A stretch of DNA of 64,000 bases from Escherichia phage AV126: the sequence record OR352956.1; one strand, written 5' to 3'. This document shows positions 9,151-51,410 of this stretch, in pieces. The notes beneath the pieces were generated by a model, which saw nothing but the letters and a program-made list of their open reading frames with translations, did no database searches and was not told the DNA's origin. Each line of letters opens with the position of its first letter. The stretch's first letter is position 1. The translations under genes were made by a program, and so were the position numbers.

Positions 9151-10524
9151 ATGGCAACTTTTCGTGAAAAGGTAGCAACCGTAACTTTACTGTATGGTGC
9201 TACATCAATTCGTGAAACCCAGTTCGATATTCCTCTGATCCTTACAGGTCAGAACGTAACTGGCGAAGCGATTCAATATTACTCTTCTTCCGATGCACTT
9301 TTGGAAGCAGGTTATGGATTAAATGATCCAGCGTATATTATGGCAGTCAAACTGTTTAACGGTTTGTTCCCACCAGATCAAGTCATGGTTGGTAAGCGTG
9401 AAGTTACAAACTTTACTCTAACTCCAATCGTAGAAGATAGTGCAACTTACACAATTACCATCAAAAATGGTACCAAGAAAAAAGAATTTAAATTCATTGC
9501 TGATGACACTGCAACTGCACAAGAGATTGTAGTTGGTCTTACTGAAATGATCAATGCAGATCTTGTTTATGGCTCACTGTTTACAGTAGCTAACAACGGC
9601 GCTGCAATGACTTTCACTCCAGTAGAAGGTAAGTTTGGTTCTATTGACAGCACAGGTTTCACTCAAGAAACTGTCTATGCTAATGCTATTACGGAAGATA
9701 TTGCTGCTCTGCATGATATTGATAGTAGCTGGTTCTGGACCCTTTCAGATTCCCATGAAACAGAAGATGTTCTAGCTTTGGCTGCATGGGTAGAAGAGAA
9801 TGATAAAGTTTACTTCTTCTCTAGCTCTGAACCTGGAATTAAAACGAAAGCAGAAGACAACGTTCTGGAACGACTGAATGACCTCGGTTATAATAACACT
9901 TGCTTTGCATTGTGGATGACCGATGCAGATTCTGTATTCCCAGAAGCAGCAGTTGTTGGTGCTATCTGTTCTCGTCAACCTGGTTTAACTACCCTTCACG
10001 GTAAAACACTGGTAGGTGTAGAGATCGAGAAACTAGATCAGACTTCGGAAAACAATATTGTTCAACAGAACGGTAACATCTATCGTAAAGAGCATGGAAC
10101 TCTGTTCTATCGTGATGGATTGATGGTTAGCGGTTTCTTTGTTGACTATGTTGTTCATGCTTTGTGGTTTAAAGCTCGCACAGAAGAATCACTGTTTACA
10201 CTGTTTAAACAACAGTCTATGCTGGGTGGTGGTGTTCGTGCTACTTCAAACGGTCTAGCTTTGATTCGACAAGCTGTTCTGGCTAACCCGATCCAAGTAG
10301 GTATCCTCAACGGTTCCATCGCTAATGAAGTTGTTACTTCTGAAGAGACTGGTTTGCGTGTCGATCTGAAACCTATTGTTTATATTCCTTCTCGTGCCGA
10401 TATGACCGATGCGCAAATCAATGCTCGTCTGGTTGATGGGATGAAGATTGAATATGTTTACGCTGGCTTCTTCCATTACGTTAAAGTTCAGGTCAACGTC
10501 CTGACTAACCGTACTGCAAACTAA
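9151..10524 (+). CDS. tail sheath protein
   Basis: 457 aa immediately upstream of 159 aa tube-like gene and chaperone/tape-measure block; synteny and size. Confidence 0.55.
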   Translation: MATFREKVATVTLLYGATSIRETQFDIPLILTGQNVTGEAIQYYSSSDALLEAGYGLNDPAYIMAVKLFNGLFPPDQVMVGKREVTNFTLTPIVEDSATYTITIKNGTKKKEFKFIADDTATAQEIVVGLTEMINADLVYGSLFTVANNGAAMTFTPVEGKFGSIDSTGFTQETVYANAITEDIAALHDIDSSWFWTLSDSHETEDVLALAAWVEENDKVYFFSSSEPGIKTKAEDNVLERLNDLGYNNTCFALWMTDADSVFPEAAVVGAICSRQPGLTTLHGKTLVGVEIEKLDQTSENNIVQQNGNIYRKEHGTLFYRDGLMVSGFFVDYVVHALWFKARTEESLFTLFKQQSMLGGGVRATSNGLALIRQAVLANPIQVGILNGSIANEVVTSEETGLRVDLKPIVYIPSRADMTDAQINARLVDGMKIEYVYAGFFHYVKVQVNVLTNRTAN

Positions 10525-10527
10525 TAC

Positions 10528-10550
10528 GGCGGGGGTTAAGCCCCCGTTAT
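10528..10550 (+). terminator. hairpin after sheath gene (weak terminator/attenuator)
   Basis: CGGGGG-ttaag-CCCCCG stem-loop, poor U-tract (TTATCAAAATAAAG). Confidence 0.35.
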
Positions 10551-10570
10551 CAAAATAAAGAGGATCTATA

Positions 10571-11050
10571 ATGGATAAAATGCTTACTGGCGTAATGGCC
10601 TACGACCCATCTCAAGTTATCCTTTCATTAGGTGGTTGGGAACCGTGGGGTTTTGCGGCTGATACTAAAATCGTTATTGCTAAATCTAACGATATTATCA
10701 ACCCTTATTCAGGGACTGATGGGGACGTTTCATTAGCTTTGAGTCGTAACCGTTTGGGAACACTCACAATGTCTTTGCAACGCACATCTCCAGCTAACGA
10801 AGTACTTGCAACATATGCACAAACAATGTATTCTACTCGTCAAGTAGCATTCAGTGTTTACTTGGAAGACCCACGTGGCTATTACATTAGCACGATTGGA
10901 TGGATTCAAAGTCAGCCTGAAGATACTATTGGCGAAATGATTACAGAGAACCAATGGGTTATTGGTCTTAAAGATGCAAGCCTTCTGCGTAATGAAGTTG
11001 GTGTAGGTTTGAGCACCCTTAACTCAATCTCTGCTCTGACAATTCAATAA
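10571..11050 (+). CDS. tail tube protein
   Basis: 159 aa between sheath and chaperone/tape measure; GAGG SD; followed by strong terminator. Confidence 0.5.
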   Translation: MDKMLTGVMAYDPSQVILSLGGWEPWGFAADTKIVIAKSNDIINPYSGTDGDVSLALSRNRLGTLTMSLQRTSPANEVLATYAQTMYSTRQVAFSVYLEDPRGYYISTIGWIQSQPEDTIGEMITENQWVIGLKDASLLRNEVGVGLSTLNSISALTIQ

Positions 11051-11056
11051 TAAATA

Positions 11057-11078
11057 AAGGGCAGAAATGCCCTTTTTA
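11057..11078 (+). terminator. intrinsic terminator after tube gene
   Basis: AGGGCA-gaaa-TGCCCT hairpin followed by TTTTT. Confidence 0.7.
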
Positions 11079-11095
11079 TCATTAGAGAGGAAAAT

Positions 11096-11578
11096 ATGTC
11101 ACAAGAACAAGATAACACAATTCAAAAATATGCTCGACCAGAAGAAGTAGTTGAGATTCCGTTAGATGGAAACAGATCTGTTACTTTCCGTATTATGAAG
11201 TGGAGTCCATCTAAAGTGTTTGACAGGATTCCAGAATTGGGTAGTGTTCTGGTTGTTCCTATGACTATGTATAGCACAGCAACAATGTCCGCAGACGAAG
11301 ACCTTGAGTCACGTATTGCTATGGCACTGATCCAACTTTTTGCAGGTTTGGAAGAAAAGAATTTAACTGTCTTTTTGCGTAAAATTTTAGATGAGGTTTA
11401 TACTCAAGACGGTTATAACGTTGCAGAAAATTTTGATGAATTATTTATGGCTCACCCAGAACTAGTGTTAGATCTTACTGCTAAAGTTCTGGAGGTAAAC
11501 TACGGCCCTTTTTTCAAACGAGGTTTCGGAAAACTGTTCACACAGCTTCAGGCGATGACGAGTTTAGCAGCAAATTAA
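11096..11578 (+). CDS. tail assembly chaperone (short, zero-frame product)
   Basis: 160 aa between tube and tape measure; contains slippery heptamer T_TTT_TTC near its 3' end; -1 frame open across the overlap. Confidence 0.6.
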   Translation: MSQEQDNTIQKYARPEEVVEIPLDGNRSVTFRIMKWSPSKVFDRIPELGSVLVVPMTMYSTATMSADEDLESRIAMALIQLFAGLEEKNLTVFLRKILDEVYTQDGYNVAENFDELFMAHPELVLDLTAKVLEVNYGPFFKRGFGKLFTQLQAMTSLAAN

Positions 11579-11844
11579 CACCTGCGATTGAACATGCTAT
11601 CGACACAGCAACGAAAACCCTTACTTTGAAGTGGTATGAGGTTATTCTTTGCAAAGTCGTTAAAGATACCTCGGAAACACTGAAAACATTGGATAACTAC
11701 GGTGTAGATTATCTTTTAAAACTATATGAGTATTTAACATACGAAGAGTATGTTGAAGCCATGTATGTTAAAGACACTTCAATAAAGAGAAAACATCAAA
11801 ACCAGACAAATAAAATGTCAGATTTGTTTAAGAAACTTGTTTAA
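11096..11844 (+). CDS. tail assembly chaperone, predicted -1 frameshift fusion isoform
   Basis: Joining frame 2 (11096 to slip site) to frame 1 (to TAA at 11842-11844) gives about 249 aa; lambda G/GT-like arrangement upstream of tape measure. Confidence 0.5.
11509..11515 (+). other. -1 programmed ribosomal frameshift slippery site (T TTT TTC)
   Basis: XXXYYYZ heptamer in zero frame (codons TTT TTC); -1 frame is open and start-codon-free from 11485 through 11844. Confidence 0.55.
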
Positions 11845-11864
11845 TCCAACACGAGGAACATACT

Positions 11865-13853
11865 TTGTTAGAAATTAACGCCTCCAAAATTAGTAACGTG
11901 GTTACGTTTAAGGTGGACAAGAACAGTCTCAAGGAAGCAAAAGATGCCGTGTTGAGTGTTCAGAAGTTTGCAAATAAAATGCAACCCACTATGAACATGA
12001 CCAAGTTTAGACAACAAATGAAAGAGATTGAGCGTGAACTTAAGAAAGCTCAAACTCAAAGTCAAAAACCTATGCGAGCACCTACTCCCGCTGGAGCGGG
12101 TGCTCCTGTAGGCGGATCTGGCAGACCTAGAACTCCTAAAACCCCGCAAGGAAGAGAAGAAGAAAAAGCTCGTAAAGCTGCTGAACGCGAAGCTAAAGCA
12201 GCAGCACGTAGGGAAGACTTAGGTAATCTTCGTTTGCAGAACTTTAACTACAGAGCAAGAGCATTTAGTAAAGCCAGTCCTGGCGCTATGCAAGAAGCTA
12301 GAGACGTTATGGGTAAAGCTGTAGAGCAATACAAAAAGGGTGAAATAACTCTTCAACGTATGAACCAAGCTCTTGCTCACCAGTTGGATGCTTTACGCAG
12401 ATCTCATCGTGAAAAGAATGCTGAAATAGAAGACGAGGTTCGCGGTCGTCGCCGTATTCGTAGAGAGTTAGAAGCAGAAGCTAAAATGCGTATACGTATG
12501 CGAAATCGTGAACTTAGGGATATAGAACGAAATCGTAAGCGTGAATTAGCACAACAAAAACGTGATCGTGACCGTAGATATGGACAATTAAAAGAAGGTG
12601 CAGCAGGTCTTAATCCACGTATGATTGCATCCTCTTTGATAGGTGCTGGGCTGTTTGCAGGTGGTTCTGTAGTTGGTAACACGTTGATGAATACTAACGA
12701 AAGAATTAAACTTGTAAGCCGTGGTGCTGAAAACGTTCAGACAAACGCCAACGCTATTTTGGCAATGACAGCTTGGGGTGAACAGAACGGTGTAGACTCT
12801 GCAAATATTATTAAATCAATAGATAATATTAAAGACGTTCGTGAACGTCTTGGTAATACAGTTTTAGCTGCAAAGTGGAATGAGAAAGAAGGGAAGTGGA
12901 AAGGCGGTGATAATGGCATAACTGACATTATGAACTTGTTTGGATGGAATCCAGAACAGCTTAAACCTTTACAGAACGATCCTTTAGCTTTTATTCAGGC
13001 TACTGTTAATGAAGGTGAGCGTCGAGGTATGAACTCTGCTCAAATCGGGCGACTTCTTGAAAACCTTGGTGATGACCTTATGCACTACCAACGTATGTTT
13101 AGTAAAAACGGCGAAGGATATAATGAAGTATTGAAAATGCTTCAAAGAACAGGTGCAACATTAACTCAAGAACAAATAGATGCTTCTAAAGAGTTTACTC
13201 GTTTTGCTGCAACAGTTCAGCTTGTAGGTCAAGGTATGCAGAATCATTTCTTAGAGGGTTTTGTAAAAGCTTTACCTAAAGATGATTCTTGGTTGGATAA
13301 CGTTAAAGTGCTAGATCAGTTCGCCAAAGATTTAGGTGAAGAACTTGGTAAAACAACAGTTCAACTTGGTGGTTTTGCTAAAGAATTAGGAGATGGTTTC
13401 GGATCTTTTACCAATTGGCTTAAAGAAACATTCCCAGATACCTTCGGAGACAACACAGATCCTAATAAATCTTTGGCACAAAAAGCATACGAGGCAACGC
13501 AAAGTGGAGACAGCAATCCTGTAGCAGATTGGTTGTACAATTTAACAGGTATTGATACACAAGATATTGGTCGTATGTGGAGAGGAGAACAAACAAGGAC
13601 ACGTGCTTTTGGATTTGGTAATCCTCTTGAAGATTTACGTGAATCAGCCTATACACCTAACGTAAGTTTGGCTCGTAATCAACCTGTTGTTGAGAATACG
13701 GTAGCAATACCAAGTGATCTTATCAAAGTTACGATCAGCCCTTCTTCCGAGTTTGGAAATATTCTTGATGCAAGAATTCAAAATAGCGGAAATAGTATTT
13801 TCCAACGTTTGTCTCTTTCAACTCTAAGTGGACAATCTAACACTGGTGGTTAA
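11865..13853 (+). CDS. tail tape measure protein
   Basis: 662 aa; TTG start with GAGG SD; Arg/Lys/Glu coiled-coil N-half, Gly-rich hydrophobic segment (IASSLIGAGLFAGGSVVG); position after chaperone. Confidence 0.65.
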   Translation: MLEINASKISNVVTFKVDKNSLKEAKDAVLSVQKFANKMQPTMNMTKFRQQMKEIERELKKAQTQSQKPMRAPTPAGAGAPVGGSGRPRTPKTPQGREEEKARKAAEREAKAAARREDLGNLRLQNFNYRARAFSKASPGAMQEARDVMGKAVEQYKKGEITLQRMNQALAHQLDALRRSHREKNAEIEDEVRGRRRIRRELEAEAKMRIRMRNRELRDIERNRKRELAQQKRDRDRRYGQLKEGAAGLNPRMIASSLIGAGLFAGGSVVGNTLMNTNERIKLVSRGAENVQTNANAILAMTAWGEQNGVDSANIIKSIDNIKDVRERLGNTVLAAKWNEKEGKWKGGDNGITDIMNLFGWNPEQLKPLQNDPLAFIQATVNEGERRGMNSAQIGRLLENLGDDLMHYQRMFSKNGEGYNEVLKMLQRTGATLTQEQIDASKEFTRFAATVQLVGQGMQNHFLEGFVKALPKDDSWLDNVKVLDQFAKDLGEELGKTTVQLGGFAKELGDGFGSFTNWLKETFPDTFGDNTDPNKSLAQKAYEATQSGDSNPVADWLYNLTGIDTQDIGRMWRGEQTRTRAFGFGNPLEDLRESAYTPNVSLARNQPVVENTVAIPSDLIKVTISPSSEFGNILDARIQNSGNSIFQRLSLSTLSGQSNTGG

Positions 13854-28600: not shown

Positions 28601-29146
28601 ATGATATTTACAAATTTTAAAAAGTATATTCCTGAAGATCCTGAACTAAAAGAATTGGTAGAAGCAGAGAACATTCTTTTCCTTCGTTGTGATCAAGGTT
28701 ACGATTGGTATGATTTACGTAGCACAGAATTCAATAACGATAAAATGAAAGTCGTTTTTGATGATCAAAATCGTATTGTGTTTTGGAATACTGATCCTAC
28801 ACTACTTTGCCCTGAAGATCTTTCTATAGCACAAGTAGACTTTAATATAGATACTTTTGAGGATATTAGGAACAAGGTTTTAGATTTAGAAACCTTAACT
28901 CTTAAGGATAAAGAGTATTCCCGTGAAGAGTTGATGACACAAACTAGTGCAAAGATTCGCTCTTTACAAGAAACAGCGGTAGCACTTATAACACCTTTAC
29001 AATATGCTAAAGATTTAGAAATGGCTACTGAAGATGAATTAGCTTATCTTAAAAATCTTCAAGTTTATGTGGTTAAACTAAACCGTGTTCCGCTTCAAAA
29101 AAACTATCCTTACGCTATAGATTGGCCTACATTACCGACGGAATAA
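28601..29146 (+). CDS. tail fibre assembly protein (Tfa-like chaperone)
   Basis: 181 aa; C-terminus (LQYAKDLEMATEDELAYLKNLQVYVVKLNRV...IDWPTLP) matches the conserved Tfa motif. Confidence 0.7.
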   Translation: MIFTNFKKYIPEDPELKELVEAENILFLRCDQGYDWYDLRSTEFNNDKMKVVFDDQNRIVFWNTDPTLLCPEDLSIAQVDFNIDTFEDIRNKVLDLETLTLKDKEYSREELMTQTSAKIRSLQETAVALITPLQYAKDLEMATEDELAYLKNLQVYVVKLNRVPLQKNYPYAIDWPTLPTE

Positions 29147-29155
29147 GGGATCACT

Positions 29156-29491
29156 ATGGAATTTCAAGAAGCATGGGGACTTGCAAAGGATGCAATCATC
29201 CCTTTAATCGGAGTCATCTGGTTCTTTTTCAAACAAAAAATGGATAAATTCGGCTCTGATCTTGAGGAAATGGAGGAGAAAAGTCGAGAGCTAGAGAAGA
29301 AGTTGGTCTTTGTTGAATCAACTTATGCAACTAAAGCCGAACTTACCCAGATGCTAAATCAAATTAACTCTACATTAATGGCAAATAATAACACTCTTGA
29401 GCAAAAGATTGAAAAGATTATGGACCTCAAGAATGCTACTATTCAAATGATGCTAGATGACATAGTTAAACGTACACAGAATAAGGGGTAA
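29156..29491 (+). CDS. membrane-anchored coiled-coil protein (holin- or spanin-like topology)
   Basis: 111 aa; single N-terminal TM (AIIPLIGVIWFFF) then coiled coil; GGGATCAC SD. Confidence 0.3.
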   Translation: MEFQEAWGLAKDAIIPLIGVIWFFFKQKMDKFGSDLEEMEEKSRELEKKLVFVESTYATKAELTQMLNQINSTLMANNNTLEQKIEKIMDLKNATIQMMLDDIVKRTQNKG

Positions 29492-32548: not shown

Positions 32549-32557
32549 TGGAAATAG

Positions 32558-32585
32558 AGAGGGGGGATTCCCCCCTCTTCTTCCA
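32558..32585 (+). terminator. hairpin terminator after tailspike gene
   Basis: AGAGGGGGG-att-CCCCCCTCT 9 bp stem followed by TCTTCC. Confidence 0.5.
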
Positions 32586-51343: not shown

Positions 51344-51372
51344 AGTATAACACGATAGAGGCTTTATTGCAA
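51344..51372 (-). promoter_or_regulatory. sigma70-like promoter (- strand), TTGCAA-N17-TATACT
   Basis: -35 at 51372-51367, -10 at 51349-51344; directly after G-rich hairpin 51373-51392. Confidence 0.45.
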
Positions 51373-51392
51373 GAGGGGGATTTCTCCCCCTC
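51373..51392 (-). other. G/C-rich hairpin between TerD-like gene and hydrolase promoter
   Basis: GAGGGGGA-tttc-TCCCCCTC 8 bp stem; no U-tract; similar to palindrome at 32558-32578. Confidence 0.4.
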
Positions 51393-51410
51393 AAAATCAT
51401 TTGTTAATTA

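Follow-up and report, generated by a model that had tools for sequence, protein, structure and literature searches.

The 64,000-nucleotide (nt) stretch of the genome of Escherichia phage AV126 analyzed here (OR352956.1; hereinafter, the window) contains, at positions 11096-11844, a predicted tail assembly chaperone gene that overlaps an open reading frame (ORF) in the -1 frame. Comparative sequence analysis makes it very likely that this locus is a G/GT-type tail assembly chaperone gene in which a short product, G, is extended to a longer product, GT, through programmed -1 ribosomal frameshifting. The features of the locus, in the order of their positions, are as follows.

11096-11578, plus strand: tail assembly chaperone gene encoding the short product G (160 amino acids (aa), 18.2 kDa) in the zero frame, with a TAA stop codon at 11576-11578
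11485-11578, plus strand: overlap between the zero frame and the -1 frame, 94 nt at the 3' end of G, without ATG, GTG or TTG in the -1 frame
11491-11496, plus strand: internal Shine-Dalgarno (SD)-like sequence GGAGGU, 12 nt 5' of the slippery heptamer, a putative 5' stimulator of the shift
11506-11512, plus strand: second phased heptamer, C_CCT_TTT, which overlaps T_TTT_TTC and at which a slip would yield the identical protein
11509-11515, plus strand: slippery heptamer T_TTT_TTC, the proposed site of the -1 shift, of the form X_XXY_YYZ in the zero-frame phase, inside the overlap
11515-11844, plus strand: -1 frame segment T, 109 codons and a stop codon, predicted to be read only after the shift
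11522-11529, plus strand: conserved GGTTTCGG, 6 nt past the heptamer (9 nt in Vequintavirinae), encoding G-F in frame 0 and R-F-R in frame -1

Family matches identify the product of the 160-aa ORF as a tail assembly chaperone: it is recognized by Pfam Phage_TAC_15 (PF21822; 1.3e-23, 84.3 bits, with a cut-off of 22) and by phrog_3840, annotated as 'tail assembly chaperone' (2.8e-55). The ATG start codon is preceded by GAGAGGA, with an anti-SD duplex of -6.4 kcal/mol. In the -1 frame, a TAA codon at 11482-11484 is followed by an open stretch from 11485 to the TAA at 11842-11844. These coordinates of the chaperone ORF, the overlap and the open -1 frame, which had been given in an earlier note on this DNA, are all reproduced here. 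The same note described the -1 frame as free of start codons up to the tape measure gene, which holds within the overlap but not downstream, where TTG codons are located at 11626, 11689 and 11824, and ATG codons at 11761 and 11815. The +1 frame is closed, its sole open stretch being 11568-11591, so that a +1 shift is ruled out.

The predicted GT product corresponds to join(11096..11515, 11515..11844), with base 11515 read twice, and comprises 249 aa (28.8 kDa); the fusion of 11096-11514 to the frame ending at 11844 that was originally proposed has the correct end but departs from this conventional join. The predicted tryptic peptide spanning the junction in GT is VLEVNYGPFFQTR, and its counterpart in G is VLEVNYGPFFK. 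The T segment coincides with a PHROGs family of unknown function, phrog_16039, and has no match in Pfam; sequence searches of the PDB with G and T produced no matches, and the structure of the GT fusion predicted without an alignment has a predicted local distance difference test score (pLDDT) of 40, too low to be of use.

The zero-frame codons at the site, GGC CCT (11507-11509) TTT (11510-11512) TTC (11513-11515) AAA, which encode G-P-F-F-K, confirm that the T_TTT_TTC sequence pointed out in the earlier note has the X_XXY_YYZ phase. The overlapping C_CCT_TTT heptamer is kept only in Stephanstirmvirinae and is missing in Vequintavirinae, which have TGT as the preceding codon. Heptamers of this kind are frequent, with 54 in-frame occurrences among the 13,164 codons of the plus-strand ORFs of at least 100 aa in the window (0.41% per codon), so that one such heptamer within a 31-codon overlap is unremarkable by itself. 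However, only one of the 54, that at 11509-11515, is followed by a long open -1 frame (109-110 codons), compared with 47 codons for the runner-up and at most 26 for the others. The runner-up is the A_AAA_AAC sequence at 29098-29104, located in the ORF 28601-29146 (181 aa), 14 codons ahead of its stop codon; the -1 frame there is open for 47 codons to 29247 and overlaps the next ORF, 29156-29491. This occurrence is probably due to chance.

A tblastn search with G yields matches in 358 phage records. From GenBank, we derived a set of 17 loci, the window included, which represents Stephanstirmvirinae (phi92, PsgM04F, phiWec186, KP2025, KP13-16 and 05F01), Vequintavirinae (rV5, 18-1-2, SSE121, Hena1, KB57, CB7, SNUABM01, CR9 and UPEC06) and one Vibrio phage. 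The G proteins of the relatives show 24-83% identity to that of the window (in an alignment of 15 sequences, with phiWec186 and UPEC06 omitted). In 16 of the 17 loci, with G identity down to 28%, T_TTT_TTC is found in the same place, at the NYG[P/C]FF motif, and all 44 loci collected from IMG/VR contain the heptamer together with an open -1 frame, which brings the overall count to 60 of 61 loci including the window. The exception is Vibrio phage S4-7 (KX507046), with a distant chaperone homologue, in which the -1 frame is likewise open to the tape measure gene and an in-frame A_AAT_TTT is located approximately four codons upstream in the alignment (locus positions 1800-1806). In this phage, the slippery sequence appears to have been replaced with the architecture kept, which is the pattern expected if the function rather than the sequence is conserved.

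The -1 frame remains open for 206-278 nt past the G stop codon in every locus, the 206-nt case being a contig end; in the GenBank-derived relatives, it opens just 5' of the heptamer and extends 242-278 nt past the G stop, ending just before the tape measure gene. The codon choice at the site is frozen as well. Among 19 representatives that are less than 88% identical over 51 nt, the third codon positions within the heptamer are T, T and C in all 19, whereas the majority base at adjacent third positions, among them those of the Asn and Tyr codons, whose residues are just as conserved, accounts for 37-74% of the sequences. Given the codon usage in the window (CCT 0.51, TGT 0.58, TTT 0.57 and TTC 0.43), the chance of obtaining the heptamer codons is approximately 0.12 per independent lineage.

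Several lines of evidence indicate that the -1 frame is coding from the shift site onward. When the -1 translation from 11509 is used as the tblastn query, the matches cover 100% of it, including the overlap, with 59-67% identity in phi92-like phages (E-value of about 1e-26). In the alignment of 19 T segments, R-F-R with an invariant F comes right after the site and is followed by a variable Gly/Ser-rich linker of approximately 16-46 residues and a conserved domain of approximately 70 residues. The base in front of the conserved GGTTTC is always A or C (35 unique contexts), which specifies Arg (AGG or CGG) in the -1 frame, while the frame-0 residue at this position varies (R, D, G, S, T or I). 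The fixation of this Arg against a variable frame 0 indicates that selection acts on the -1 frame 5' of the G stop codon, in a region accessible only through frameshifting. Furthermore, the conserved domain of T starts with LSPxV..A, in which the invariant A28 precedes residue 38, the one encoded by TTG 11626, the first possible start codon in the window. No SD sequence is associated with this TTG, for which the best anti-SD duplex is +0.1 kcal/mol versus -6.4 kcal/mol for G and -5.9 kcal/mol for the tape measure gene. The second ORF overlaps the first one in another frame, lacks a start codon in the overlap and has no ribosome-binding site ahead of the first start codon that it does contain. 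Among 5.8 billion proteins, a search with GT as the query detected 41 homologues, all of approximately 160 aa and covering the G part only; no natural single-frame G-T fusion and no annotated fusion protein was present among these 41. As far as the sequences indicate, the two-frame layout is always kept among the homologues found.

These observations bear on the alternative under which the -1 ORF is a separate small gene that is translated from TTG 11626, or by termination and reinitiation after the G stop codon, so that no fusion is made. Such a gene would agree with the existence of a PHROGs family of its own, phrog_16039, and with the 72-aa hypothetical protein that several public records place at the equivalent of 11626-11844, a separate gene being the reading adopted in most records, but the start codon implied by this annotation is a TTG without an SD sequence, no ATG occurs in the -1 frame of the window until 11761, and conserved residues, including A28, are encoded upstream of it. 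PsgM04F, KP13-16, 05F01 and SSE121 contain an ATG approximately 21 nt past the G stop codon that could serve a separate gene; however, the position of the first -1-frame start is not conserved, and several relatives have none until far downstream. In addition, a separate gene would not account for the frozen synonymous positions of the heptamer, or for the retention of R-F-R in the -1 frame within the overlap, where the frame-0 residues vary. Taken together, these findings render a separate gene improbable.

Upstream of the heptamer, the GGAGGU at 11491-11496 is a candidate for an internal SD-like stimulator. Its predicted duplex with the 3' end of 16S ribosomal RNA (rRNA) has an energy of -10.6 kcal/mol, a level that is reached approximately in 0.047% of 9-nt windows and at 18 sites on the plus strand of the 64 kb, and it is made of minority codons, namely CTG (15% of Leu codons) and GAG (25% of Glu codons). 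Stimulators of this type are known to act on -1 shifts at a distance of 9-14 nt and are a major feature of dnaX and of approximately 56% of insertion sequence (IS) elements (PMC5009743); the 12-nt spacing of GGAGGU falls within the range given there. In 35 unique relatives, the median of the best upstream anti-SD energy is -7.1 kcal/mol versus -3.0 kcal/mol at random positions of the same loci, and energies of -7 kcal/mol or lower are found in 54% of these relatives versus 5% of the background. The relatives without GGAG at the Leu-Glu-Val codons (KB57-like, CB7/CR9-like and an uncultured clade) possess GGAGGT, AAGGTGG or GGGAGAGG 7-10 nt further upstream, so that these relocated elements sit beyond 14 nt. 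On the strength of these comparisons, GGAGGU probably promotes the -1 shift in a dnaX-like manner, although this signal is confounded by the conservation of Leu-Glu-Val and by the kinship of the sequences.

Marginally less probable than a separate gene is transcriptional slippage, in which an additional U would be incorporated by RNA polymerase at the T6 run, so that normal reading of the altered messenger RNA would yield GT. Slippage is used by other length-ruler systems, and a one-base insertion in the homopolymeric T run of the chaperone gene would result in the same protein, but the slippage described in bacteria occurs on approximately 9 A or T (PMC5009743), whereas the run considered here, only six T followed by C, falls short of this length and is never longer in the 60 loci. 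Moreover, slippage would explain neither the exact X_XXY_YYZ phase with C in the Z position nor the enrichment of an upstream SD-like element at a distance suited to the stimulation of -1 shifts, an element that plays no part in slippage of this kind. As for pure coincidence, in which a heptamer and an open frame would be adjacent by accident and no functional shift would take place, the abundance of in-frame heptamers in this AT-rich genome (0.41% of codons) makes one per 31-codon overlap not rare, but this explanation is effectively refuted by the comparative data, given that the heptamer and the architecture are kept in 60 of 61 loci from two subfamilies, that the -1 frame is conserved at the protein level and that no other heptamer among the 54 in the window has a long -1 extension.

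Under programmed -1 frameshifting, the majority of the ribosomes would translate 11096-11578 and release G, whereas a minority would slip one base back on U_UUU_UUC, with phenylalanine transfer RNA (tRNA-Phe) in the P site (UUU) and in the A site (UUC). Both tRNA-Phe molecules would re-pair with UUU_UUU, and reading in the -1 frame to 11844 would produce GT, which is predicted to consist of residues 1-140 of G, Q-T-R-F-R, a short linker and the conserved C-terminal domain of approximately 70 residues. Pairing of the 3' end of 16S rRNA with GGAGGU probably promotes the slip, as in Escherichia coli dnaX and many IS elements, and an RNA structure further downstream is probably not required; a low efficiency of frameshifting is expected. 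By analogy with phage lambda, the shared G part might coat the tape measure protein and the T domain might recruit the tail tube protein (10571-11050), so that tube polymerization would begin on the tape measure. The same analogy suggests that the proportion of GT to G would be fixed at a low level by the frameshift efficiency and that both proteins would be absent from the virion. In the record of phage CB7, the label 'MS/MS confirmed' is attached to the sheath, tube and tape measure but not to the G and T ORFs; this is a small hint that fits non-virion chaperones. More tentatively, it is possible that the shift is driven by the upstream SD pairing alone, with no 3' structure, that selection keeps the stimulator by relocating it, and that, with the poly-T site of Vandenendeviridae and Andersonviridae also considered, the combination of a U6 site with a 5' rRNA-pairing stimulator is ancient across an order-level clade of large lytic myoviruses.

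Several points weigh against programmed frameshifting or limit the support for it. We found no direct observation of a fusion product, either for this phage or for any relative. Conserved residues are encoded both at the heptamer (Phe-Phe) and where the SD-like element lies (Leu-Glu-Val), which implies that part of the nucleotide conservation is due to protein-level constraint. The compared sequences are phylogenetically related and hence not independent, and one of the two patterns used in the IMG/VR search demanded ...FF at the protein level, which biases the amino acids, albeit not the codon choice. The -1-frame ATG just past the G stop codon in PsgM04F, KP13-16, 05F01 and SSE121, discussed above, belongs here as well. 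The U_UUU_UUA and U_UUU_UUU sequences are far less shift-prone than A_AAA_AAG in E. coli (PMC5009743), and for U_UUU_UUC, we found no measurement in the literature. The earlier note suggested examining RNA structure downstream of 11515; no shared structure was detected in the minimum free energy folds of the 90 nt past the heptamer in 16 phages, no stable 3' stem-loop or pseudoknot of the dnaX/IS type lies 5-9 nt after the site, and it is the upstream SD-like element that is supported instead. The sole shared hairpin, GGUUU-NNN-AAACC at GGUUUCGG, located 6-9 nt downstream and consisting of 4-5 base pairs, has an energy of -0.7 kcal/mol in the window and from -0.7 to -4.8 kcal/mol in the relatives; we rejected it as a stimulator in view of this marginal energy and of the dual coding (G-F and R-F-R) that accounts for its sequence. 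Finally, no joined chaperone coding sequence is present in any of the public records inspected (approximately 20, from phAPEC8-, phi92- and rV5-like phages), and no report of frameshifting in these phages or in Phapecoctavirus was found in the literature.

In the inspected records, the chaperone is a 160-aa protein, and T is either left unannotated or listed as a 'hypothetical protein' of its own, the start of which is implausible. The record of rV5 (NC_011041) differs in that gp050 (1851-2219) begins in the -1 frame three bases ahead of the heptamer, whereas start codons in this frame begin only at 1971, beyond the annotated start at 1851; apparently, the annotators recognized that this ORF reaches back to the heptamer. 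The words frameshift, slippery and chaperone are all absent from the rV5 paper. The usefulness for correct annotation that was anticipated in the earlier note is borne out, in that all the inspected records miss join(11096..11515,11515..11844). Recognition of this join would give the correct tail assembly gene and remove a spurious orphan family, phrog_16039, in groups that include many phages under study as therapeutic candidates. It would also add two subfamilies to the families, Vandenendeviridae and Andersonviridae, for which a poly-T frameshift in the chaperone has recently been proposed, and would make available a straightforward natural system for studying a -1 shift on U_UUU_UUC in E. 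coli, perhaps with an upstream SD-like stimulator only. The main value is in annotation: no concept is changed, and the locus would be a previously unannotated case of the well-known G/GT device.

The genomic neighborhood shows the gene order tail sheath, tail tube, tail assembly chaperone, -1 ORF and tape measure, such that the chaperone/-1 ORF pair is directly flanked by the tube and tape measure genes. Together with the conserved heptamer and the open -1 frame, this order bears out the G/GT-type arrangement that had been surmised from the sequence of the window. The neighboring genes are as follows.

9151-10524, plus strand: tail sheath gene (Pfam DUF3383)
10571-11050, plus strand: tail tube (major tail) protein gene, a 159-aa ORF (KPP10_Orf10, phrog_280), the upstream neighbor of the chaperone gene
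11865-13853, plus strand: tape measure protein gene, 662 aa (phrog_16051, tail length tape measure protein, 1246 bits)

The match of the tail tube protein to Pfam KPP10_Orf10 scores 24.4 bits, slightly below the 25-bit cut-off, and that to phrog_280 has an E-value of 3.1e-35; homologues in the records of relatives are labeled as tail tube or major tail protein. The filing of phrog_280 under 'head and packaging / virion structural protein' is at odds with both these labels and the position of the tube gene. The tape measure gene starts with a TTG preceded by GAGGA, 20 nt beyond the GT stop codon, and the same start is given in the RefSeq records of relatives. Between the tube and chaperone genes, there is a terminator-like hairpin at 11056-11075 (AAAGGGCAgaaaTGCCCTTT followed by TTAT), which could cause the chaperone and tape measure genes to be transcribed less than the sheath and tube genes; terminators are annotated in this region in some related records. 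Two G/C-run palindromes that came up in the anti-SD scan, at 32557-32585 (GAGAGGGGGGAT-TCCCCCCTCTTC) and at 51371-51395 (AAGAGGGGGAT-TTCTCCCCCTC), look like strong hairpins and are possibly terminators.

The region 10500-12500 of the window is 99.3-99.8% identical to approximately 60 Phapecoctavirus genomes (phAPEC8, ESCO5/13, ZCKP1 and others), and the window belongs to Phapecoctavirus, a phAPEC8-like lytic myovirus of Stephanstirmvirinae with a genome of approximately 150 kb and a GC content of 39%. Several records that name other hosts are close relatives of E. coli Phapecoctavirus in the chaperone region; among them, Campylobacter phage B15 (MG065650) and Acinetobacter phage ABPW7 (OP562383) are 99-100% identical, and Pseudomonas phage PsgM04F (OR584014) shows approximately 67% protein identity in the T segment. 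The Campylobacter, Acinetobacter and Pseudomonas host labels of such records look doubtful.

Knowledge of the G/GT strategy dates from 1993 and 2004. In the latter year, Xu, Hendrix and Duda reportedly described a conserved class of chaperone frameshifts in double-stranded DNA phages, including the myoviruses P2 (E/E+E') and Mu. All the features by which this class is defined at the sequence level are present in the AV126 locus. As in lambda, the chaperone gene is located between the major tail and tape measure genes and overlaps a -1 ORF that lacks initiation signals, and a short abundant product and a long rare product with a common N-terminus are predicted. Unlike in lambda, where the heptamer is G_GGA_AAG, the slippery sequence is U_UUU_UUC; G belongs to Phage_TAC_15 rather than to the lambda gpG family, neither lambda G nor lambda T shows detectable similarity to the AV126 sequences, and the phage is a lytic myovirus of approximately 150 kb. 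The binding partners in lambda are the tape measure protein for the G part and the major tail protein for the T domain; the approximately 30:1 ratio of the two products is critical, and neither of them is found in virions (PMC5009743).

A closer parallel is provided by Vandenendeviridae and Andersonviridae (the latter Felix O1/Moogle-like). According to a 2025 paper on Pseudomonas phage Adele, which belongs to Vandenendeviridae, these families are related to Vequintavirinae and Stephanstirmvirinae, including the virion modules, and a conserved -1 frameshift at 'GTTTTT' has been proposed for their chaperones (PMC12846349). The tgTTTTTTC of Vequintavirinae contains GTTTTT, and by sequence the two sites are probably homologous, whereas in the subfamily of the window, the site is cccTTTTTTC, with a preceding C, so that the 'G' of the motif is not kept. 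Only Vandenendeviridae and Andersonviridae were tested in that study, and its passages on the site make no mention of an upstream SD-like element (PMC12846349).

The comparison with E. coli dnaX and the IS cassettes concerns the mechanism of the shift. In dnaX, a strong 3' stem-loop is present and approximately 50% of the ribosomes shift, whereas in the AV126 chaperone gene no convincing stem-loop is seen and a low efficiency is expected; furthermore, the tRNA on the slippery sequence is tRNA-Phe here and the lysine-specific tRNA-Lys in dnaX. What the AV126 site shares with dnaX and the IS cassettes is the combination of a slippery heptamer with an internal SD-like sequence 9-14 nt upstream, represented here by GGAGGU.

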